A stretch of DNA of 63,531 nt, counting the filler, from Folioceros fuciformis (taxonomy: Eukaryota), in NCBI GenBank assembly GCA_049999805.1. It is 9 parts of 9 records of this genome, joined end to end, with 100 filler letters (N's around TTAATTAATTAA, not from the genome) between each part and the next. Parts side by side here need not be neighbours in the genome. Positions count along the whole stretch, not along the records: positions 48,816 to 57,912 come from JBNGIO010004714.1; 8 more parts are not named here. One strand, written 5' to 3'. The translations under genes and the position numbers were made by a program. The notes under the pieces were generated by a model. The model worked only from the letters and a program-made list of their open reading frames with translations. It was not told the origin of the DNA and did not search any database. Every line of letters starts with the position of its first letter. Position 1 is the stretch's first letter. Positions 13,564 to 62,353 of the stretch are shown piece after piece.

Positions 13564-13663
13564 NNNNNNNNNNNNNNNNNNNNNNNNNNNNNNNNNNNNN
13601 NNNNNNNTTAATTAATTAANNNNNNNNNNNNNNNNNNNNNNNNNNNNNNNNNNNNNNNNNNNN
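13564..13663. other. Artificial contig-joining linker (one of eight)
   Basis: 44 N + TTAATTAATTAA (stops in all six frames) + 44 N; same linker at 21363-21462, 24177-24276, 37275-37374, 42986-43085, 48716-48815, 57913-58012, 62254-62353. Confidence 0.98.
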
Positions 13664-21362: not shown

Positions 21363-22577
21363 NNNNNNNNNNNNNNNNNNNNNNNNNNNNNNNNNNNNNN
21401 NNNNNNTTAATTAATTAANNNNNNNNNNNNNNNNNNNNNNNNNNNNNNNNNNNNNNNNNNNNGCACTTCCGCCTCCTGAACTTACTCCACTCTCCGCCAT
21501 CCTCTGGGGTCCCTTCTACATCAAGACCAGGAACTCGGGTTGATTCAAGCGCTGTTCTTCATCATTCGCCCCTCCACCCCGCTGCAAATCACGCCATCTG
21601 TTAGCCCCAAACTCGGGAACCTCCCCGCTATAACCATCCTCGTGGCGTCCCCTTCTTGAAGGAGAGTGAACAGCGCCTCCAGGTGTTCCATCTAGCAGAA
21701 TGTTAGATGCCCCACCGAAAAGGCGATGAAACTCCTTCTCCAGTCGTTGAGCTCCTCCCATCCAAACGCGCATGCTCCCCTGGCCGTCTCGACAGGCAGC
21801 CACCCACCACTCTAATCGCGTCCGCTTGGCAAGGAGAAGGCTCAGCAACAGGGTCCTTACCGCATGAGGGGCATTTGACCTGCGACTTGCGTGGCAGAGA
21901 ATCACCTCGTTTCTTGGCCTTCCTCGCCCTTGCAACCTTCCGGTTCTTCTCACCCAGGACCTGATTAGAACTCACCGAGAGTGCTAGCACATTGGCACCT
22001 GCACCTAATTGCAGCGATTCTGCAAGACGTGCTCCAAGGTGTTGGGGGTTATCTAGGCTTGCCTCCGTCGATGAGGAGAAGGTGCGCTTGGGGAAACTCT
22101 TGAGCAACCCTGTTGACCACGGCCTGCCTCACTAAGAACCTTGCCTCCTACCGGCCCGTTCCTTAAGTCACCTTAGGGTCTCTGTTGAGCAGAAACACCA
22201 CCCTGCACCGCCTTTGCACTTGCCAACATCCTAAGATCGAATTCAGTGCCTATACTTATCTTCACAGCACCCTACACCTGCTCCTGCTGGTCAAGACCAG
22301 CCTGCACCTGCTCCGGCTGGTCAAGACCTTCTTGCAGACCAGAATGATGGAAGGAAACCTGTTCCCGAAGCTCTACATCCATCGGTACAGATCGGTCTTC
22401 CTCCATGTCCTCCTTTCATCTGAGCTCCTATTCTCCTGGAAGTTTAATTGTAATCGACGAGGTTAGCAATCCGAAGAAGCTCAGATGAGCCTTAAACGCT
22501 ATTCTAGTGGCAAGAGTGACCCGAACTCTGCCGAATTTAGCATCCTTGACTAAGGCAAGCACCTTTGACTCCCCCAT

Positions 22578-24176: not shown

Positions 24177-24403
24177 NNNNNNNNNNNNNNNNNNNNNNNN
24201 NNNNNNNNNNNNNNNNNNNNTTAATTAATTAANNNNNNNNNNNNNNNNNNNNNNNNNNNNNNNNNNNNNNNNNNNNGGATTTGGCAGCGGGTTGGGGAGT
24301 TTTCTAGCGCTCAAGGAACAAGGCTCGTCGAAGGCTGTGTCTGCTGTTTGCTGTTTCCGATTGGATTGACGGGATCGGAAGAAAAAGGAAAAAAATCGAA
24401 CAA

Positions 24404-37274: not shown

Positions 37275-37374
37275 NNNNNNNNNNNNNNNNNNNNNNNNNN
37301 NNNNNNNNNNNNNNNNNNTTAATTAATTAANNNNNNNNNNNNNNNNNNNNNNNNNNNNNNNNNNNNNNNNNNNN

Positions 37375-42985: not shown

Positions 42986-43370
42986 NNNNNNNNNNNNNNN
43001 NNNNNNNNNNNNNNNNNNNNNNNNNNNNNTTAATTAATTAANNNNNNNNNNNNNNNNNNNNNNNNNNNNNNNNNNNNNNNNNNNNGGAAGAGGGAGATTA
43101 GGGGAGGCGGGGGGGCCGTACCATGCGAAAGAGAGAGAGGCAGCGAATGAGGCGGCGTCGCGTGTGCCGGGGGTACCATCAAGGCGGGGCCTACCCAAAA
43201 GGAATCCGCCCCGCCTGCCGAGGCGCGCAACCAGACGCGGGGGCTGGCCCAATCCCGGGTCCCACCAACGCCCGTTTCCTTCACAAAACGCCAACTCACC
43301 ACACTCCCATCATCACACACAAACCCAAAATAAAATAAAATAAAATCCAAATCAAACCAAAACAGACCAA

Positions 43371-48168: not shown

Positions 48169-48815
48169 GGGGATCCCGCTACACCAGATGGCGACAACGT
48201 CGCCGGCCTGCCCTGCCTTGCTTTGCTTTGCCTTGCCTTGCCTTGCCCTGACTGCTTCACATCACATGCCCATCATGCTCCCGCTCATGCGCATCCACTC
48301 TCCACCTCCCTTAGGATTACTACACACTAGAGAGCATGCACCGGGCGCGTGCTTGTAGGTGGTGAAACGAGAGAGTGAAAGGCGGCCCGGTTTGAATCTT
48401 AGCACACTAGACGGAGCAGCAGCAGCAGCAGGAGGGTCAGGAGCCAGGAGCCAGGAGCAGGAGCAGGAGCAGCCGCAGCAGCGAGGAAGTCACGACTCCC
48501 TGGAGCCGGGCCAACCTGACCTAACCTAACCTGGCCTAACCAAACCTAACCTAACCTAACGGCCTCTGCTGCCGGATACAGCCGGTGGCGGCCACCGGAC
48601 CGACCGGTGACGCCGAACGCGCTTGGCGTGATCCGGAACACGACAAAGCGGGCCAGTGGGTATCCGCCAGCGCGGCGCTCCGTATGGCATCATCGATGGA
48701 CGAGGCTGGCGCGCGNNNNNNNNNNNNNNNNNNNNNNNNNNNNNNNNNNNNNNNNNNNNTTAATTAATTAANNNNNNNNNNNNNNNNNNNNNNNNNNNNN
48801 NNNNNNNNNNNNNNN

Positions 48816-51800
48816 GCGGATCATCAAATAAATCAACATGGTCTGGTGCTTGTTGAAGAGGAACTGCATTCTCAACTGTCTCACCACCAGTGGGAACATT
48901 GTGGGACTGGTCATTGTCACCCCCTGAACCACCGGCTGCACCTGCTGCACTGGCTGCACCCCCTGAAGGAGAAGCAGGAGCAGAAGGTGGGACAAAAGAA
49001 TCCTGAGGAAAGTGAGAAGGAGCTTCATCATCAACATCAACCGAGGCCTCAAAATCAGTAGCTGGCATCGTGTTGTTGACAGTGTCAGCATTTTGCTTAG
49101 CAGGAGAAGTTAGCTCCTTAAAGGTCACACTTCGAGCAAAGAGAGAAGAATGAGAGGAGGGGTCATACAACTTGTAAGCCTTAGTCTCCTCACCGTATCC
49201 AACAAAGATATAAGGCTTAGCTCGGTCCTGAAGCTTCTTGCGTTGCTCGACAGGTATGAAGGCATATGCTGGAGAGCCGAAAACGCGAAGATGCAATAAA
49301 CTGGGTCGACGTTGCCAGATTACCTCATAAGGCATGCGTCCTTCAACAACACTTGTCAGCAGTCGGTTCAGAATGTACGTAGCTGTGACAATAGCCTCAG
49401 CCCAGTAGGATTTGGCCAAACCTGACCAATCAATCATGCTTCTTGTCATATTAAGCAGAATCTAGTTGCGTCTCTCGGCGACTCCGTTCTGCTGTGGAGT
49501 ATATGGGACAGTAAGCTGCCTCAAAATGCCTCTTTTAGCAAGATACTGGTTGAAAATGCTGCTGACATATTCAGTGCCATTGTCGGATCGAAGACAGCGG
49601 AGGAGTCTGCCTATCTGATGTTCCACCATGATAAGCCATTCTTGAAAGAGAGGAAACGTGTCTGATTTGCGTTTCATAGGATAGGTCCAGCTATATCTAC
49701 TATAGTTGTCTGTGATTGTGAGATAATAGAAGGCACCTCCTAATGATGGAACATGCAGCTTACCAGAAATATCCGAATGCACCAGGTCCAAAACGTTTGA
49801 GGAACGATAAGAAACTGTGGAAGGAACTGGAAGTTGCTTTTGTTTGGCAACAATACAGGAATCACATAATGGAAGTTCCTTAAAGTAGCGAGGCAGAGGC
49901 TCCCTATAACATTCAAGGTTAGACATCTTTATCAACTTGTCTTGATTTGCATGTCCCACACGAGCATGCCATAATTGTGCCAAAGCTTCTTGTGTCGTGG
50001 AAAAGACGAAAGCGCTCTTAGCGTGTTCACAGCATATGTTGAGCTTGTAGAGATCATGTTCAAGAATACCCCGAGCAATAGTAGTATGTGGAGATGTCTT
50101 GAGCACAATGTGGCAATCAGCAGCAGAGGTAAAAGACAACTCATAACACTCTAGCTTCATGAATTGACTAACCGAAAACAGATGCTTTGCCATACTCGGG
50201 ACATACAGAACATTGTCCAGTTGCAGAATAGAGTTGTCGGCAAGTCGAAATGAGCAAGACCCAGAACCAAGAATATTCAAACCTGTCCGGGTAAGTTCAT
50301 CGCCCAACAACACCTTCTCTTTAGTTTGGAAAGGAATAAAGTTGCTAAGCAAGTTTCTATTGTGGCAAATATGGGATGTCGCCCCCGAATCCAAATACCA
50401 AGAGTCTGATTGACAGGCCCTATGCGTATTATGGCAGACGGTGAAGACAACTGGCTGCTTGCCAGAAGAAGAAGCCTATGAGGGCTTGTCCTTGGAAACA
50501 GAATGCGCCTCAACCGCCCTAGGGGTCTTCTCGGCTTTCTTCGGTTCTCCAGAACGTTTCTTCCTGCACTCGCGCTCCCAATGCCCTGGAAGCCCACACC
50601 AGTTGCAGGATCCAGTACGTTTTGCTTGCCCTGGCTTGGAAACACCAACTCCTTGTGAGTTCTTTCCTTTCCCAAATTGCTATTTGCTTTTGGTGAACAA
50701 GACTCTGTCAGTCTTAGTCTTGGCAGAGTGTGTATTACTCCGACTTTGTTCTTCTTGGAATAGAGCGCCAATTACATCAGTGAGTAAAATGCGGGGTTGT
50801 TTGCCTGCAGCCACAGCCTTGGTCGCAGCGCTGAGGGAAGCACCGTAGCTAGATACAAAAGGTTGATAGCTCGGAGGCAAACTAGTGAGCAGTTGAGCAA
50901 CAGCATCAAGCTCGCTCATTGTGGAGCCCAGGGATATCAATTGTGAACGAAGATGCCTGAACTTCCCCACGAATGCGGCTACCCGATCTCCATCTCTCAT
51001 TCACAAAGAGAACAACTCACTCCTCACAGCACATAGAGTAAGAATATTCTTCACATCATATGTCTATGAGAGTTGTGTCCAGATCTCCTCTGCTTTGTTG
51101 AGATAGGCAACATCAGGTACCATGACTTCATCTAATCCACTGATGAGGAGGGCACGTGCAACATTGTTAGCATTCATCCACTTGTCCTTCTCATCCTGGG
51201 TGGCTGTGGCTGCAGGTTCTACATGAACTCCACTAATGACTCCCCACACATGCCGAGCATCAAGTGCAGCGCGCATCCGCACGCTCCACACTTGATATTT
51301 ATTCCCGTTGAACCTATCTCGTTCCTTGAATTCTATTGTGTAGGAGGGTTGATAGGTAGGAGGAAAAGGAAGTGGAGGTATAGGTGATGGAGCAAGGGGT
51401 GTGGGGTATGATACGCCACCACCCAAGCCGCTACCACCACCACCGGAACCGCCGACGCCACCAGAGCCCCCGCCGCCAGAGCCCCCGCCGCCAGAGCCCC
51501 TGCTCGCCATGCTTCAGAGGTGATAAAGGAGGCTAAGAGGCCAGGGGGCTAACAGGCGACTGGACAGTGTAGCGCCAAGTCGGTGTCAGCTGACGCCGCT
51601 CCACAGAGTCGGCAGTTACGGGTACGAAACGACGTCGCGCCTGTTCGCAGCTTTTGACATGTTTCCGAAATTGGGCGCCTGATGCCAAATTGCTCACTGC
51701 GCCCGTTCAAATCTTGTCTGTGCAGAATCGCGATGCCTGCAGAGACAAATCCCAACCCCAGATGAGATCAAAGCAAAGTGGATCTCGAGTCTCGACTCGA

Positions 51801-52776
51801 GGAAGCCACATAATCTTGTCGCATGATCTCCCGGATGAGCAGCGCTCTCTCAAGTAGAGAAATCAGGCGCTTCTGTTGTTGTGTCAGGCTGTCAATTTGT
51901 GCCACAAGAGTTTGGAGATCTTTGAGCTGCACAATCGCACAAGTCTGATTTTGGATTGGGCGCAGATCTTGGTGACAGGTACAGCCTGAAATGCTCGCTC
52001 GTTTGTATTTGTCGTCCTGTAGAGATGGATGAGTGAACCGATATTGGTCGGCTCTCTTCCTTTGAGTGTCTACAGGAGTCGGCAATGGGATTTGATGCCT
52101 CTGATAAAATTCTGCGTTTCTCAACGCGATGTTCCATGGAAGAACGGATGACCGCCTGGATTGGCGTCTAGACATCTTGATGGCGCACAACACCTGCCTT
52201 TGATCTTCACAAGTAATTGCGTCTCCACATAATACGCAGCGGAAATATAGAATCTAAGCATGTCCAGACTTCTGATTGTCTGATGATGCCTTGTCTGTTT
52301 GTATCTAGAACTAACAGTGTAATGCAGGTGACGAGACTACGCTGGGCACACCATCCTGCACCCATTTGCATGTGTGCAAGATTTTTTTTTTTTTGACTAA
52401 TTGTAAGTTTGGTCACGGGCATCTACAGTGCATACATCTAGAAACAAAAGATAGCCTATATGCTATGCAGATAGAGAGCCTTCCTGAGCACATGATCCAC
52501 GCCTCACGGAAAGTGAGTATTGAATGATGTGCTCATTCGAGTGCTTTTCTATCATCATAGTAACCTAGCGCTCTGATACCATCACAAGGTTTTTGAAGAG
52601 CGGAGCAAGCGAGAGACTTGAAGAAAGATTTGTAGAACAAGTAAAACAATTAATGTCAAAAGATGTCTTATATACAAAATTGTATGTAACCTATGTAACT
52701 CTTCATTTAAGTATAAGTTAGATATTCTAAGCGACGTGGTTACTAGTTAATCCTAACCGGGTTACGGGGTTCAACA
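48816..52776 (-). mobile_element. Ty1/copia element (short 5' LTR, PBS, upstream extra ORF, gag, protease, integrase), decayed
   Basis: LTR starts TGTTGAA at 52776; PBS at 52570-52581; gag ERDRFNGNKYQVWSVRMRAAL; CNWCGLPGHWEREC; WYLDSGATSHIC; LWHARVGH..CDSC; LRSDNGTEY; PQQNGVAERRN; several in-frame stops. Confidence 0.95.
52570..52581 (-). promoter_or_regulatory. tRNA-iMet primer binding site
   Basis: Plus-strand GCTCTGATACCA = TGGTATCAGAGC on minus. Confidence 0.9.
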
Positions 52777-55475
52777 TATATGCCTCTAAGACTTTGGCAA
52801 TCCAAAATGGTCTATTGTCTTCGTAGGTCTCGCAAGGGACTGCAATCATATGCCCTTTTTCTATTTCCATTATATCCTCGTTCAAACTGTCGCAGTCATC
52901 ATTGAGGTCCGTCTTCCTACGGTATGCCCCTACATACATGTTTCTTCTGGGAATCTCGCGGATGCGTGGATTGTAAACAACCATTTCATCTGGTACAGTA
53001 ACAGGTGTGTTCAATATTTTTGCCGCCTCCCGATTATACCACAGCCAATTCGAATCAAGTTCTCTGTCTACACTGGAGTTTATAGAATGCACGATAGCCT
53101 CTTGCTCTGCCCAAAACCCATCCCACCACAAGTTCTAGCCTAGTCCTAAGTGTTGTCATAATCGCACCTCTAGTTTTAATCTGATTTGTGCCAGATGATA
53201 TTCAACGACATTGTCTGGAACTGTCCTTTGTTTTTTGCTCCTAGATTGTAGATATAAAAATGGAGCAGCTTTGATTTCTGTGTCCGGAACATGCTTCAGA
53301 AACTCGATACCCTCATCTGGCGACCAAAATCCGTCTGTACAATACTGCTTCCCGCGCATCACTATTATAAAGCCCTGTTCACCATGGCTCTCCCTTGTGA
53401 TCTTGAACTGGTGTTGGAACGAAATATTGTGCAGTGGGTGAACAGCCTTACATTTTGATAACCAGCTTTTCCGAAAGGTACAGGCCACACAAATCGCCGA
53501 AAGTCTGGCACCTCCTTCACTTCATGCATTGCTGGTGTAGGTGTATAAGAACTCTGCATAACAGCGATGAGTGCAGGTAAAGTCAATGCCTCTTTCCTTT
53601 CCAGAGCCGTCAAAAACCGAGAGAACATCTGGTCCACTTGGTCGTGTGTGTGGCCTACTAGTAAAAACCCCACCTTTACCTTCTTGAAGATTCCTTTCTC
53701 CACTAACATATTCAAATATGAAAACAGCATAGCGTTTTTGTTTTCTCTTGCTGTGTTGTCCAGCTGCAAGTACATAACTCCTAGAAAAAGTCCAGCGTAC
53801 ACGTGAATCACACTCTGAATAATAGAAATCGTTAAGTTTGCATTGTTCCGTATATTTCCATACTCTATGAAGAGCTCAGGCGACATTGTGCTATTGTACA
53901 CCATGCAGCCCACGACATGGACGTCAATAAGGTCAAAATCCGCCAAGTCTTTTGGAAGTCGCACAAACTGAGGAATATGAGTTTTTTGCTGATCCATACC
54001 ATCTATAGACAACCCGAGATATTGAGTTGGATCACCATAGCATTTTACACGATACTTGATACTCTTCTCCCTCTCCGCCTTCAGCCACTGTCGATGTTCT
54101 TTTAAGTTGCTTTCAAAACCCTCTGCCAGGAACGGGAACAACAGTCAACGTGCACTTACTTTGGTCTTCGGGTGTGCGCCGGTGTACCGGTGCACTTTTC
54201 TCATGCATTTGGACAAGTGCGCTGGTAGATCGGCGCACTTGTCCTCACTCGGCGGGAGTGCGCCGGTAGACCAGCACACTGGTCCTGACCCGCCGGGAGT
54301 GCGCTAATAGACCGGCGCACTAGTCCTGACCTACCGGGAGTGCGCTAATAGACCGGCGCACTCCATGTGTCACCCAAACCAGCACCAGACTACAAACATG
54401 TGCAATAAAGAGCATGGAATTAAAACACGCAACCCTAAGAACAAATTCGTACCTTGTTTTTGTTTATCTGTTTCAGAGCGAATGTTTCTCTTTAGATAAT
54501 CGCACGTAGTACACAAGGAAAATCTGTTCGTTTTTGGAATGCGCACTTTCGGGAAGTGCGGAGCCCATAGCTGACAGAAGTAAGAGTACGAAATGTTATA
54601 TTTTCTTGCTCTGCTCATTTGCCGCTTGTAGTCCATGAGAATTTCCTCCTTTGTGTAAGAGTCAGGCAAATGGTACAGTTCAACATTTGGCATACGCTCT
54701 GCAATTAGGAGAAATAATTGATCCATCCATACGACGCGGCAGCGGCTTACCCTGGAGCCCGTGGCTCTGAGGGGATAGCTCTGGACCAAACAATGTTCCC
54801 ACAAGCACGTTCTTTTGCTCCCTCATATCTATTTGAACCAATACAGTACACTCTTCTGAAAGCGTCTCGACAACACCTTATTTTCCCCAACCCAAGTAAG
54901 AATGGCTCCGCGATTGGACGTGCGCTACCAGTCTGTTCGACATCAAAATGTGCCTGGAAAAAGGTTTCTTGTTCGGTCCTGCTCATCTTCAAAAACCGAT
55001 ATCGCAACTCTCTGAATCCTGGTTTGCCAAGCAGTCTCAAACATTGTCTTGGACAACATATCTTTCTATAATCAAGGGAAATGCGAAGCTCTGAACACTT
55101 AGCCTCTAGTAATGTTGAAGTTCTCTTCTGCCGACATCTTCGATGATCTAAGGGTGTTTCGATCATTGACTCCAACGCCGGCTTCCGATTAAAGGTCGAC
55201 CGCTGGCTAGGTGTTTGTCTTGAATCCGAACACTCTTGACTGCAACGCCCTTCTTCATTCGCATTCATGGAATCGTTCACTTCCTGCATATGTGTTCCAG
55301 TACCTAGGCCCCAACCTTCTGCACCACTCCCTCCCGAGAACTTACGAACATCGGCGTTTCCCCGTAGCACTGTAGTCTTCATCACTGCGCCCACAAATGA
55401 ATGTCGCGGAGATAACAGGCTTGGAAAACTGTGCACTTCGTCCAGAAGACTGAGCCGGATTGGCGACGACCTCAA
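52777..55475 (-). mobile_element. Sola-like DDD transposase pseudogene with a phase-1 intron (54452-54123)
   Basis: FCQLW..FPKVRIPK..FSLCTTCD; LSIDGMDQ; YLQLDNTARENKN; FLLVGHTHDQVDQMFS; frameshifts near 54.77 and 53.48 kb; 3' end cut by the copia LTR. Confidence 0.75.
54172..54362. repeat. 41-bp tandem array of palindromic hairpin units inside the transposase intron
   Basis: AGTGCGC-N10-GCGCACT at 54216, 54257 (one mismatch), 54298, 54339, plus a degenerate copy at ~54173. Confidence 0.9.
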
Positions 55476-56099
55476 CTCCTGACACTGATGTATGGAAGGA
55501 TGATCTCCTGGGGATTAGAATCATCCACGGATTAGTAAAACAGAAGCAAATCATAGTCATGTGAATCCACGATTACAAAGCATCGTCCGCTCTTCCAAAC
55601 CTTCGTCGCTACTATCTTCACAAAAATTCTCCATACCGCGACACGATGAAAAAGATTTGTTTGCCATGGAAGCATGAAAGAACAAAGTGTATGTATACCC
55701 TTCGGCTTGGCTGGCTTTCAAATCTCCTGCGTTGTAACAAGTCCCTACACCAAGTCCCGAGGCGCAAGTGATTAATGCAATGAGAACGTTAGACCAAAAA
55801 TAGAACTAGCTGTTGAGGGAGAATCAACACTGGAAACGACCATCATCACACTAATTCGATTTGAACATTTGAGTCAAAATAGAACTAACTGTTCAATGAG
55901 AATCGCCGCCTGATACAACTTGCATCGCGCTATAAATGCATTGGCGGTCGGTAATAGTGGATATTCGATTTCAGCTGAACAGTTCGTTGTCGACTTCTTT
56001 GTTGTACAAATCCAGTGCTTGGGAACTTCTTCCACAACAGCTTCCGTCTCTAGAAAAGACTACGTGCTGTGCGACTCTTCCCTTTTTGGGTGCACAGCA

Positions 56100-57550
56100 A
56101 TGGCATCTGGTCGTCGTAGCAACAAACTTTAGCTTGTGGACAGGGATGTTGAGGCGCTTCCAAGAGTTTGAAAGCAAAGGAACGCCGGGAAAGCAACTGC
56201 GCGAGCGTCGTCTGGTCACAACCCCGATAGAGATGGACAACGACCTGCACCACCGGCTGGCGAAGAGGCTACTCCCTTTGCCTAGACTACTGGAGGAAGA
56301 AAGGATAACTCAGGTGGGAGTGAGAGAGCGTCCAATTCAAAACCAAGCGAAGGAACTCTGAACCACATTTCGATGACTGTGAATCACGGAGGTAGTCAGA
56401 ATTACAACATTCCAAATGCCTACAACTTTGTAGAGCGATTGAGACTGAAGAAGTTAGAAGACACTCTGGCCAAAAGATTCAACATTGACAAGGAATGGTT
56501 TTTGATAGCTAAAGATGAGCCTGATGACTTGAACTTGTCGTGGATTCCTCTTGTTGCTCTGTGGGTGAATGGGTTTCAAGGCTTGGTGGAGGACGAAGCA
56601 GGAAGGGCAGGATGGATTCTTTATGCGTTTGTGGACGGGGAAGACGACGAAACTGACTTGAATTTCATCCTCATCCGACACCCACCAAGCCACATTACGG
56701 ATGACTACGACAGTCACAGTTTAGTGGTTGTGAATGTTGCGAAAGCTATACCTCACCGATGCGAACCGCTGTGGATGAAAAACACGCTAAGAGATTGTCC
56801 TTTTTTGAAGGATGTAAGTGGTCTTATCAACCCTAAGTTAAAAATGTTGTTACCGAGAATTATCCTAAACCCTAACTTTTGTGGTTGGTTTTTCGCTAAC
56901 TAGGGTGGAGAACAGTTTTGTCGACAGTATTGCAATGTGTAGGCGACGCGGTGCTGAACAATAGGGCTCTTGTCGCGCGGCTTGCGGGGGGGAGCGGCAG
57001 CGGAAGTCGGTGCAAGTAGAATTCGGAGTCCTTCATACTCGTGCAGTGGGATTCGTGGAAGACAAGCAGGAGATGCCTCGTATGTAACCAGAGATTTCAA
57101 AAGAAGAGGCACCCTACGTTCCAGATCACAACGAAGAGGAGGAAGTCAAGGAAGTGGGGGAGATGGCTCAATACTCCTCAGCGGAAGACATTCTAACTGA
57201 AGCTTTGGAGATGCCCTACAATTCCTGCGAGGGTGATGCATCAGAGGAGTCTCTTGTAGAGATGACTCCACCGCGGAAGAGGGTGACCCAAGGGCGCCGG
57301 TCTACCAGCGCACCAAGGCAGCGGAAAAGGAAAGCATCAGCATCTTCTGCGAAACAGCGGAAGATGATATCTGGTGAGGCTATTGTGAGCAAGCTTGTAA
57401 TTTCTTTGGATTTGTTGCTGGCTTTCTGGATTCTGTTGATGAAACACTGACCACTGACCCCGATGTTACTCCTCCTGTGTGTCTCCACAGCCACATCTCC
57501 GCAGCCGAAACGGCGAAAGCCTACCTCCCCGGATCCGCCTCCAGGTCCCG
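56100..57550 (+). pseudogene. Decayed multi-exon gene of unknown family, divergent from the transposase
   Basis: One frame from MASGRRSNKL through ..RAGWILYAFVDG..CPFLKD broken only by TAG/TGA stops; donor GTAAGT at 56814; acidic then NLS-like exon (RKRKAS..KQRK); intron 57374-57490. Confidence 0.55.
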
Positions 57551-57912
57551 CCGGGAGCGACGTCGCGCGGCTCCACACCTGGATGTGGAGCTTCGCTCGG
57601 GAGGTGAAGGAGCTTTCCACCCCGGACTGCTTCGACGCAGTGACGGATGCCTTAGATGCGTACGTGGAAGCGTCCATGGCCGTGCGCGAGGACGTCGATG
57701 CCTGCACCCGGGACGTGGAGTCGTACTCCCGCGTGAGGGGATACAACATTGCCTGCATGTCGTTCTGCGCAATGGCCGAGATGATGGTGCAGGAGTTCCT
57801 TCCCCCGCATGTGCGCGCGCATCCCGCCATCCAGAAGTTGGCCTGAACCGCCTGCTTACATGTCGGTTTCCTGAACGACCTCTTTTCCTACGACAAGGAA
57901 GTGGCCAGCGCA
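57550..57912 (+). pseudogene. Microbial-type terpene synthase-like (MTPSL) C-terminal half with one in-frame TGA; cut by contig end
   Basis: ALDAYVEAS..VESYSRVRGYNIACMSFCAMAEM..LPPHVRAHPAIQKLA*TACLHVGFLNDLFSYDKEV; NSE/DTE metal-binding motif NDLFSYDKE at 57874-57900. Confidence 0.85.
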
Positions 57913-58012
57913 NNNNNNNNNNNNNNNNNNNNNNNNNNNNNNNNNNNNNNNNNNNNTTAATTAATTAANNNNNNNNNNNNNNNNNNNNNNNNNNNNNNNN
58001 NNNNNNNNNNNN

Positions 58013-61000
58013 TCAGGCTAGGTTCCGGCTGCTGATCCCACTCCTTCCCACCTCTTCTCCATCTTTCCCATTGCTCATGCTCCTCCCCTAGAGGCTGGCT
58101 CAGCCACCAAGGGTGAACAGTTGCAGGGGAAGACTTAGCGGGCGACCATCCAGCAAGGAAGAGGCGGCCTCCGCAGACCTTTGAAGATCAGACATCCTCC
58201 GAAGTCTCTGGATAGTCTAAGAGGTGGTAGATCCTTGTGGTGGTAGGGCTAGGAGCTCATTGGTGGCAGGTTGTGCTAGAAGTCTAAATAAGTGGCTGGT
58301 GACAGCCGGCTAGACTATTAAAATAATATTTCTCAAGTTAGAGAGAGGTGAAGTCAGAGAGAGAGAGAGAGGCTCCTATAAGATCAGGTGAGCCTGTAGG
58401 AGGAGGGAGTCATTCACTTTGGGGAGTCAGTCTATCTCTTTGTGAGCTCTTGGAGGTCCTCTCTTCCTGAGCTCTTGTGGTCTGTCCCTGCTTGGTTTAG
58501 GACTTGCAGTGTGTTGCCGGCTGTGCAACGTCTGGTAGGATCGCAAGCCGTGTGTTGCCGGCTGTACAGTGTCTGGTAGGATCGCAGGTGGCGTGTTGCC
58601 GGCTGTACAGTGTCTGGTAGGATCGCGGGCAGCGTGTTGCCGGTTGTATAGTGTCTGGTAGGATCACAAGGTGTAATGACCAGGGTGAAGGGGCTTGCCC
58701 CTAGCTCTTGATTGTAAAGGGTGTGTCTTTCTCTCGACCTGTCCACTCTTGTTCCTTGCTTGGTCAAGTGTTGTAGGCCGGCCATGTCTCATGGCGTCTG
58801 GTAAGGTTGTGGGGAGGAGATACCCAAGAGGGGAGTGTGTTCCCCTCTTCCTTTTGTTTGGGGTTAGTCTAGTGACTCTTGCCAGGTAGGAGGAGTCCGT
58901 AGGGAAGTGTAGAAGGTAGTGGTGTCGTTGCTGGTTGTTGGTAGTTGTTGGTGTTGGTGCTGGAGCGAGAGAGTGAGTGAAGTGTGTGAGGGAAGTCGCA
59001 GATCTGAGAGGTTAGAGTCGTTGTAGTGACTGGAGTGAGTTTGTGGGCACCAAGAGAGGTGCAGCTAACCGCCGGACAGCGAGGCCTGTCCTACGCCTGA
59101 TCGGAGCTGAAGGGGAGCCCTCGAATCCATCATCGAGTCGATCAAGTCCGACCCTCCATCCACAGCAGCAAGAAACCCCATCGCTCCTTCGTGGGAACGA
59201 AACCCAATGTCTCAACGACAGTGGGATAAGTGTGGCCACTAAAGGTGGAACCTGTCGGCAATCAGTGCCCGGGGTTTTGCCTCCACAAGGGCATACTGTC
59301 AGGATGGTGGATTTGGGTCAAGAGGTGACTTGTTTCCATACTGAAGTGGTGGAGAATGAAGATCCACAGGAGGATGAAGAGCAAAGGGAAGGAGCTGCCT
59401 TTTGGAAGGGGAAAGCCTATGACTATGATTTCCCAGAAGAAGGATTAGGAACAAGTGTAGGGAGTAGTCCCGAAGGAGTTTACGTGGATCCCGATGCTGT
59501 CGAGGACATGGAGTTGACCCCAGGGAAGAAGGTCAAGGTGTCCAAGTACCTCACACCCAAGGAGAAGGTAGGTTTGAAGGCACTGTTGACTGAATATTTG
59601 GATGTGTTTGCCTTCAAGGTGATGGACATGACAGGTGTTCCGGAGGAGCTGGGTGTTCATAGGATAGATCTCAAGGAGGGAAGCACACCGGTTCGGGTGA
59701 AGCAATATCGATTGAACCCAAAGTACTCCATGGTTGTGAAGGAGTAGTTGGATCAGTACTTGGAGGCTGGAGTCATCTATCCTGTCCTAACTAGTGAGTG
59801 GGTAGCTCCAATTGTGGTGGTGCCTAAGAAGCAAGCTGGCAAGGTGAGGGTTTGCCAGGACTTCAGGAAGCTCAATGAGGCGACCAAGAAAGACCATCAT
59901 CCACTCCCTTTCATGGACAGTGTGCTGGACACAGTTGCTGGACATGAGATGTACAGTTTCCTAGATGGGTATTGAGGTTACAATCAGATCACACTGCGGG
60001 AGGAGGATCGCGACAAGACGACTTTCACAACTGATTGGGGGACCTACGCCTACACCAAGTTGCCTTTTGGGCTCTGCAATGCTCCGACAACTTTTCAGCG
60101 GGTGGTGAATACCATTTTCAAGGAGTTCCTTAGGAAGTTCATGGAGGTGTTCTTGGATGAACCCTAACCTCAAGTTGCATCCGGGGAAGTGTTTCTTTTG
60201 CATGACGGAGGGTATCTTGCTAGCCCATAGAGTTTCAGCTAGGGGGTTGCAAGTCGACATGGAAAAGGTGAAGATCATCTCGGAGATGGATGCACCTCAG
60301 AGCGTGAGACAGGTTAGAGCCTTCATTGGGTTGGTGGGTTACTACAGGAGATTCATCAAGGACTTCGCTAAGAAGGCTGCAGCTTTGACCCAGCTAACGA
60401 AGAAGGATGTGCTGTATGAGTGGACCCCGGAGAGGGAGGAAGCGTTTCAGGACTTGAAGAGGAGTTTGGTGGCAGCACCCACATTGAGCCCACCAAATTG
60501 GGAGAAGACCTTTCATGTGTATGTGGATGTGTCAGCCTATGCTATAGGGGCCATCCTCAGCCAACAAGACGACAAGAAGAGGGATCACCCTATCTTCTAT
60601 GCCGGAAGGCAACTCACGGATGCGGAGAGGAATTACTCCACAACGGAGAGAGAGGCTTTGGGCATCATCTACGCTTGTAAGAAGTTCCGTCACTACCTTC
60701 TAGCTTGCAAGGTAGTATTTCATGTGGACCACTTTTCTTTGAAGTATCTTGTGAACAAGCCTGACCTATCGAGGAGGATCGCTAGGTGGATTCTCTTGCT
60801 GCAGGAGTTTGATTTTGAGGTGGAAACAAGAGCAGGGAAGAGCCATGTTAATGCTGACTTTGTTTCTAGACTCAAAACCAAAGGGAAGGTTAGAGAAACA
60901 GATGACAGGTTTCCTGATGAGGAGTTGATTGCTGCTGTACATATAGTAGAAGAGGGAGAGTTCGATGAACAGGTTACCGGTGAGGGAGGAGGAACCTCTA

Positions 61001-62253: not shown

Positions 62254-62353
62254 NNNNNNNNNNNNNNNNNNNNNNNNNNNNNNNNNNNNNNNNNNNNTTA
62301 ATTAATTAANNNNNNNNNNNNNNNNNNNNNNNNNNNNNNNNNNNNNNNNNNNN

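Follow-up and report, generated by a model that had tools for sequence, protein, structure and literature searches.

The right end of contig JBNGIO010004714.1 of Folioceros fuciformis (GenBank assembly GCA_049999805.1), which occupies positions 48816–57912 of the 63,531-base stretch of DNA analysed here (the window), carries an in-frame fusion between two kinds of sequence. Upstream lies a copy of a high-copy DNA element that is broken off in its interior at position 57518, and downstream lies a fragment of a microbial-type terpene synthase (MTPSL) gene that lacks its 5' part and is cut by the contig end. On balance, and with some reserve, we favour the view that an internally truncated element copy and a 5'-truncated, hornwort-type MTPSL copy became joined at the DNA level, and that the product is a non-functional relic. 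The features on which this view is based are as follows.

55500–57518, no strand assigned: high-copy repeat, as defined by alignment of public contigs, with the left limit set by the start of the alignment at 55500
57088–57373, plus strand: open frame of the repeat's second gene with basic clusters (PPRKRV, RQRKRK and KQRK), first ATG at 57163, within the high-copy part
57374–57490, plus strand: putative intron of 117 nucleotides (nt), GTGAGG followed by a polypyrimidine stretch and CACAG, wholly inside the repeat
57491–57518, plus strand: first part of the exon after the intron, (A)TSPQPKRRK, derived from the repeat, with high depth up to 57518
57518–57519, no strand assigned: breakpoint between the truncated repeat copy and MTPSL-derived sequence, an in-frame fusion marked by loose contig ends, a drop in depth and the start of homology
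57520–57912, plus strand: MTPSL fragment, approximately residues 178–306 of Anthoceros MTPSL1, without DDxxD and cut by the contig end
57844–57846, plus strand: in-frame TGA at a tryptophan position of MTPSL1, read as TGG in one public contig
57874–57900, plus strand: NDLFSYDKE, a metal-binding motif of the NSE/DTE type that follows the in-frame TGA
57913–58012, no strand assigned: linker N44-TTAATTAATTAA-N44 that marks the contig end, the sequence after it being physically unlinked

Judged by its likeness to known proteins, the downstream sequence belongs beyond doubt to the terpene synthase family. It matches the Pfam model PF19086 (Terpene_syn_C_2) with E = 4.5e-18 and 66.2 bits (cutoff 23.7) over profile positions 49–163 of 199. 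In a phmmer search of 1.84 billion representative proteins, which returned 32 matches at E up to 0.001, the best match is the 408-residue MTPSL1 (E = 1.3e-56, 73% identity, query residues 11–141 on protein residues 178–306) of the hornworts Anthoceros punctatus and A. agrestis (AVL27452.1 and AVL27456.1), named "terpine synthase-like protein MTPSL1". The matches ranked after MTPSL1 in this search are unnamed and at most 36% identical. No parent closer than MTPSL1 was found among the longer proteins searched with the fragment, and none of 11 candidates scored when the open reading frame (ORF) across the junction (57451–57843) was compared with proteins of near length. BLASTP places 94 of 132 residues as identical to MTPSL1, the identity ranging from 71 to 73% over residues 177/178–306, and the sole difference in length is an in-frame insertion of two residues (PA), with no frameshift in 393 nt.

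The catalytic landmarks of the family are retained on one side only. In an alignment (A1) of nine sequences that includes the window fragment and MTPSL1, residues N129, D130, S133 and K136 of NDLFSYDKE are invariant in all nine, and the segment conforms to the NSE/DTE consensus (N/D)Dxx(S/T)xxxE. An arginine located 46 residues before this motif, which we take to be the pyrophosphate sensor, is likewise invariant in the alignment. The DDxxD block (VDDLCFD in MTPSL1) aligns upstream of the point at which the window sequence begins; the fragment begins at the counterpart of MTPSL1 residue 178, which is about 35 residues past this motif. At the other end, the C-terminal stretch of about 100 residues that follows NSE/DTE in the family would fall past the contig end at 57912. 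A tblastn search with five MTPSL-type proteins detected no other terpene synthase piece elsewhere in the 63.5 kb window. What an earlier note, made from the sequence alone, had proposed for this side of the junction is thereby borne out: it had called the fragment an MTPSL, for which hornwort MTPSL1 is now the closest relative, had named a hit of a terpene synthase C-terminal model to the read-through as a check, and had placed the string TSPQPKRRKPTSPDPPPG downstream of the acceptor, followed by NDLFSYDKE and preceded by no DDxxD half.

The boundary between the two kinds of sequence is located at 57518/57519, because the high depth of the repeat ends there, other copies of the repeat read on differently from there, and homology to MTPSL1 starts there. 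These observations derive from contigs of four public runs with the same organism label (X1–X4), which were aligned to 55500–57912 at a likeness of at least 85%. Across the bins 57444–57524, 57525–57605 and 57606–57686, depth falls from 121.6 to 24.6 and 13.0 in X1, and from 108.8 to 27.8 and 10.3 in X2. Eight contigs of X1 and seven of X2 have loose ends behind 57518 that share one common consensus (agreement 0.94), which, as read by eye, stays open in the frame of the exon; the 30-letter continuation of these other element copies is absent from the window, even when up to 3 mismatches are tolerated. Furthermore, one X1 contig that matches 57224–57518 of the window without a difference ends exactly at 57518, as expected if reads continue from the terminal 30-mer in two ways. 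The alignment with MTPSL1 begins at query residue 10–11, corresponding to 57517–57520, such that PTSPDPPPG on the synthase side matches DSPDPPPG of MTPSL1, and TSPQPKRRK lies on the transposon side.

The sequence to the left of this boundary is a repeat with many dispersed copies. In X1 and X2, respectively, 385 and 380 contigs are placed on 55500–57912, nearly all of them to the left of 57519 and mostly 85–99% alike, and the summed depth in X1 is about 90–380 over the repeat versus about 13 from 57606 onwards. Because the other copies continue beyond 57518, the copy in the window is truncated at the junction and not at an end of the element; on its left it is either interrupted or bounded by a copia element. 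The earlier note had suggested a mobile element–MTPSL chimera that arose by capture or by insertion of the element into an MTPSL gene. The chimera is supported at the DNA level, where we consider it probably real, but a simple insertion is not supported, given that other copies read on past the joint as just described (8 contigs in X1, 7 in X2).

The synthase frame of the assembled copy is not intact. An in-frame TGA (57844–57846) lies between the part that carries the Y..R motif and NDLFSYDKE, 9 codons ahead of the latter, and interrupts the frame over the catalytic domain. In alignment A1 and by BLASTP, this codon aligns with a tryptophan of MTPSL1 (P0002 and P0034) and of P0003. At least two near-identical versions of the fragment exist, one of which has the ancestral tryptophan codon: an X1 contig that covers 57555–57912 and continues for 81 nt past the contig end differs from the window at 2 positions in 358 nt, namely 57846 A>G, which changes TGA to TGG (Trp), and 57865 G>A, which by eye changes Gly to Ser. 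This is the only X1 contig that covers 57846, and the X2 contig from the same sample keeps the A. A third contig, from X3, which belongs to a different study and is only guessed to be RNA, is 489 nt long, matches 57511–57912 with 0 differences including the TGA, and reads 87 nt beyond the contig end; overall, the public contigs extend 81–216 nt past 57912. The TGG version may be an allele, the parental gene or a second chimeric copy.

A separate X3 contig of 360 nt (record 19) shares with the window only the 39 nt at 57772–57810, with 5 differences, in the region of the conserved QEFLP.HVRAH, and does not resemble it to either side of this stretch; from its sequence, it is probably a more distant MTPSL paralogue of the same organism.

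The splice sites that the earlier note had emphasized are present, yet they do not create the junction. The donor CTG/GTGAGG has its last exon base at 57373, the acceptor …CTCCACAG (CCACAG/CC) has its first exon base at 57491, and both are in phase 1, such that the proposed spliced product would read …KQRKMIS-A-TSPQPKRRKPTSPDPPPG…. However, the match of phases is weak evidence, because the stop at 57448–57450 is the only one between two ORFs in the same frame, and the frame likewise stays open with 16 of the 50 GT-AG pairs that surround it; the phase match is thus no better than chance, while the chosen donor and acceptor are the best-looking sites among those pairs. Other copies of the repeat carry insertions or deletions that are not multiples of three at 57403, 57404 and 57449, which fits non-coding sequence at 57374–57490. 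No contig joining 57373 to 57491 occurs in the aligned public runs, which are uninformative on expression and splicing (X3 has no cover at 57039–57443). It is therefore plausible that the GT/AG pair delimits an intron of the transposon's own second gene.

Two further statements of the earlier note change in this light. It had seen the splice as joining an exon of a transposase-adjacent gene to the synthase, whereas both the intron and the 28 nt that open the following exon belong to the repeat; the rise in GC content that it described is real (0.485 at 57300–57499, 0.665 at 57500–57699), but the change from one kind of sequence to the other falls at the breakpoint, 28 nt downstream of the acceptor, and not at the splice. 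The frame that it described as running without a break into NDLFSYDKE is interrupted by the TGA at 57844–57846.

On the assumption that this region is expressed as part of the element's gene with the proposed splice, translation from the ATG at 57163 would give at most 188 residues, comprising 70 from the ATG exon and 118 from the next exon, of which the first 9–10 would be element-derived and the last 108 derived from the synthase. Since the TGA precedes the NSE/DTE motif and DDxxD is absent, this predicted product would contain neither motif and, as judged from its sequence, could not be a class I terpene cyclase. With a nonsense codon and no DDxxD, the assembled fragment would not yield a working enzyme, which weakens the idea that such fusions are a route for spreading functional genes.

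Several rival explanations of the junction have to be weighed against a relic. In one, the element captured the MTPSL fragment by transduplication, as Pack-MULE, CACTA and Helitron elements do, and resumes past 57912, the composite having moved or been copied at least once. Consistent with this, the element copy is broken in its interior rather than at an end, the fragment is in frame with the element's own gene, and the same sample contains the TGG version described above (X1 contig 57555–57912, 358 nt with 2 differences), which on a capture-and-copy reading would be one product of copying the composite. Moreover, depth at 57525–57605 reaches 24.6 in X1 and 27.8 in X2, about double the values of the later bins, as would fit two copies of the junction region. 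Yet the contig of the second version starts at 57555, to the right of the junction, fragment depth is low from 57606 onwards (about 13 in X1, about 10 in X2) relative to that of the element, and a transposon-borne or transposon-fused MTPSL is not described in the available portions of the literature examined on MTPSL and transposable elements. We consider capture unlikely. A bolder form of the same idea appears less likely again: here, a DUF7869-type element of a hornwort-like plant would have gained the C-terminal half of an MTPSL that came by horizontal transfer, joined it in frame to its second gene, whose product is directed to the nucleus, and multiplied the resulting chimera. A comparably small chance attaches to an artefact, whereby a repeat contig was wrongly joined to a genuine MTPSL contig at 57518/57519. 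The 9.1 kb contig comes from a fragmented assembly of linker-joined pieces with internal N runs, and to the left of the joint lies a repeat that occurs hundreds of times, both of which invite such an error; but no shared repeat is present at the joint to mislead a graph assembler, the exact X1 contig stops precisely at 57518, as if both continuations were in the reads, X3 from another study has 8 letters to the left of the joint unchanged and no loose end, and homology to MTPSL1 begins right at the joint, in frame.

The junction could also be read as part of a normal MTPSL gene of several exons, one intron of which was filled by transposons, such that an exon starts at 57520 behind the AG at 57518–57519 and the DDxxD exons lie upstream of 48816. 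The position of this AG directly ahead of the homology to MTPSL1, the 8.7 kb of contig upstream that are all transposon sequence, and the unchanged 57511–57912 in a run guessed to be RNA would all suit this explanation. It would, however, require the truncation point of the repeat to match an exon boundary within 1–2 nt; the acceptor is poor, with the purine-rich GAAACGGCGAAAG before the AG and no pyrimidine tract; the in-frame TGA speaks against a working gene in this copy; and the X3 contig has window sequence to the left of 57519 and not an upstream exon. We therefore regard a transposon-filled intron as improbable. Most improbable of all, in our view, is a selected chimeric gene, in which an element-derived basic, nuclear-targeting N-terminus and the C-terminal half of a terpene synthase fold serve a new non-catalytic role. 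Such a gene would account for the in-frame fusion, for 393 nt free of frameshifts and for the existence of the TGG version, but the assembled copy has a stop and lacks DDxxD, half of an alpha-helical cyclase fold would be unlikely to fold alone, and the spliced form is not seen in the aligned public contigs.

Some of the observations weigh against the relic that we favour. None of the listed public contigs bridges 57518/57519 with at least 31 letters on each side, the X3 contig crossing it by 8 letters, and this leaves the junction resting on the assembly plus indirect signs. The fusion is in frame, which has a one in three likelihood by chance, yet is what a selected chimeric gene would show. 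With no frameshift over 393 nt and the two-residue insertion as the only change in length, the sequence of the fragment suggests that it is young or still constrained. Finally, the TGG-bearing contig implies a near-identical copy with an open frame, and the term pseudogene may hold only for the assembled copy.

For a relic that formed by fusion at the DNA level, we suggest that illegitimate end-joining or repair, which would have brought internal sequence of an MTPSL gene up against internal sequence of the element, is the most likely origin. Possible routes would be a deletion that followed a nearby insertion, or the uptake of a piece of a gene while the element was being repaired. The element's own intron would play no part in creating the fusion.

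The element itself has a putative transposase gene on the minus strand and a second gene on the plus strand, and the contig also contains part of a retrotransposon. The remaining features of the contig are as follows.

52727–54822, minus strand: gene of the repeat for a putative transposase, split into several ORF pieces, with the core ORF at 53365–54144
56373–56813, plus strand: ORF of 147 residues that starts with ATG, belongs to the second gene of the repeat and ends at a good donor, GAT/GTAAGT (56813/56814)
48816–51513, minus strand: interior of a copia-type long terminal repeat (LTR) retrotransposon (gag, GAG-pre-integrase, integrase core and SH3-like domain), from Pfam matches

The core ORF at 53365–54144 matches PF25273 (DUF7869) in Pfam with E = 2.4e-45, which is the only family match of the element. 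Its neighbours in the ESM Atlas are eukaryotic DUF7869 clusters (score 0.96). A sequence search of the PDB yielded no relative, the best candidates having E values of only 0.36 and 0.95, and a single-sequence AlphaFold model of this ORF has a mean predicted local distance difference test (pLDDT) value of 36.6, too low for use. The term DUF7869 was not found in the literature searched. The earlier note had labelled the element Sola-like; these sequence and fold comparisons yielded no placement in a transposon superfamily. From the distribution of the domain and the copy number of the repeat, we infer that the DUF7869 gene encodes the transposase. No second copy of the element is present in the window, as assessed by self-BLAST of the contig against the window, the sole match being an internal repeat of 65 nt. 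This direct repeat (54216–54280 and 54298–54362) is 78% alike between its units, has a GC content of 0.57–0.60 and lies between two DUF7869 ORF pieces, possibly inside an intron.

The ORF at 56373–56813, the open frame at 57088–57373 and the exon from 57491 constitute the repeat's own plus-strand gene. For the first of these, none of 444 longer candidates scored as a relative and the ESM Atlas gave no usable match. Past the intron candidate at 56814–56903, the frame runs into a stop at 56940. An open frame between this ORF and the exon with the basic clusters, which the earlier note had called rich in nuclear localization signals, is retained by 157 single-intron models, none of which is preferable.

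In X4, which derives from the same sample as X1, a strong C>T excess is observed at 90 places that is not seen in X1 or X2, as in a bisulfite- or enzymatically converted library. Many Cs are kept on the repeat in X4 contigs, and X4 has no cover from 57525 on, which by itself is not evidence. The pattern may reflect methylation of the element, but not of the fragment.

The copia element is defined by Pfam matches to Retrotran_gag_2 (E = 1.9e-08 and 5.8e-09), Pol_BBD (2.2e-20), rve (1.8e-11), gag_pre-integrs (1.4e-10) and SH3_retrovirus (9.6e-26). It extends off the start of the contig, and it adjoins the DUF7869 DNA element or is nested in it. The window as a whole is not one molecule, but consists of nine separate contigs joined by linkers, and it also contains internal runs of N of 10 or 100 bases. 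Since the contigs that flank a linker are not physically linked, context across linkers is meaningless. The linkers, each of the form N44-TTAATTAATTAA-N44, are located at the following positions.

13564–13663
21363–21462
24177–24276
37275–37374
42986–43085
48716–48815
57913–58012
62254–62353

The junction between the terpene synthase and the repeat is located at the right end of the 9.1 kb contig (48816–57912), the end of which cuts the fragment at 57912. On the next contig, approximately four tandem copies of a unit of about 40 nt (…GTGTTGCCGGCTGTACAGTGTCTGGTAGGATCGC…) are seen by eye at 58500–58670, upstream of an ORF that resembles that of an LTR retrotransposon, with sequence like that of a reverse transcriptase, also noted by eye, at 59016–60167.

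According to part of PMC7027989, fungal-derived MTPSL genes are common to hornworts and liverworts and were duplicated after their transfer. The available portions of two further sources (bioRxiv 10.1101/2024.12.20.629586 and the review PMC12448838) indicate that seed plants lack MTPSLs and that A. agrestis has 6 and A. punctatus 7 MTPSL genes. With only 6–7 such genes reported in hornworts, one false gene would shift the count, and for annotation the region described here is not to be counted as an MTPSL gene. Truncated gene fragments fused to transposons are common in plant genomes, and as it stands the present case is a new instance of familiar genomic debris that carries little weight. Were the element found to carry and copy the fragment, this would show concretely how a gene family gained by horizontal transfer can be duplicated and shuffled in bryophytes, and capture with copying would be a first example of a transposon shuffling pieces of this horizontally transferred terpene synthase family there.

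Plant DNA transposons such as Pack-MULEs, CACTA elements and Helitrons commonly carry gene fragments, thereby forming chimeric ORFs. Capture by Helitrons is mentioned in the abstract of PMC11986588. Like the fragments acquired by these elements, the MTPSL fragment is a piece of a host gene joined to the interior of an element and readable in frame with an element exon, and like most of them it is truncated and carries a disabling mutation; the element differs in that it has a DUF7869-type gene and belongs to none of these families. Compared with Anthoceros MTPSL1, the fragment shares the PF19086 family, 71–73% identity, the invariant arginine and the NDxFSYDK motif, but the window holds only the equivalent of residues 178–306 of 408, lacks the N-terminal 177 residues and DDxxD, has TGA in place of the tryptophan codon as well as the PA insertion, and has transposon sequence upstream where MTPSL sequence would be expected. 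Truncated duplicate pseudogenes that arise by illegitimate recombination near transposons differ from the present case, where a near-identical copy with an intact tryptophan codon exists, and resemble it in their one-sided truncation of a coding sequence, nonsense mutation and abrupt change in composition.

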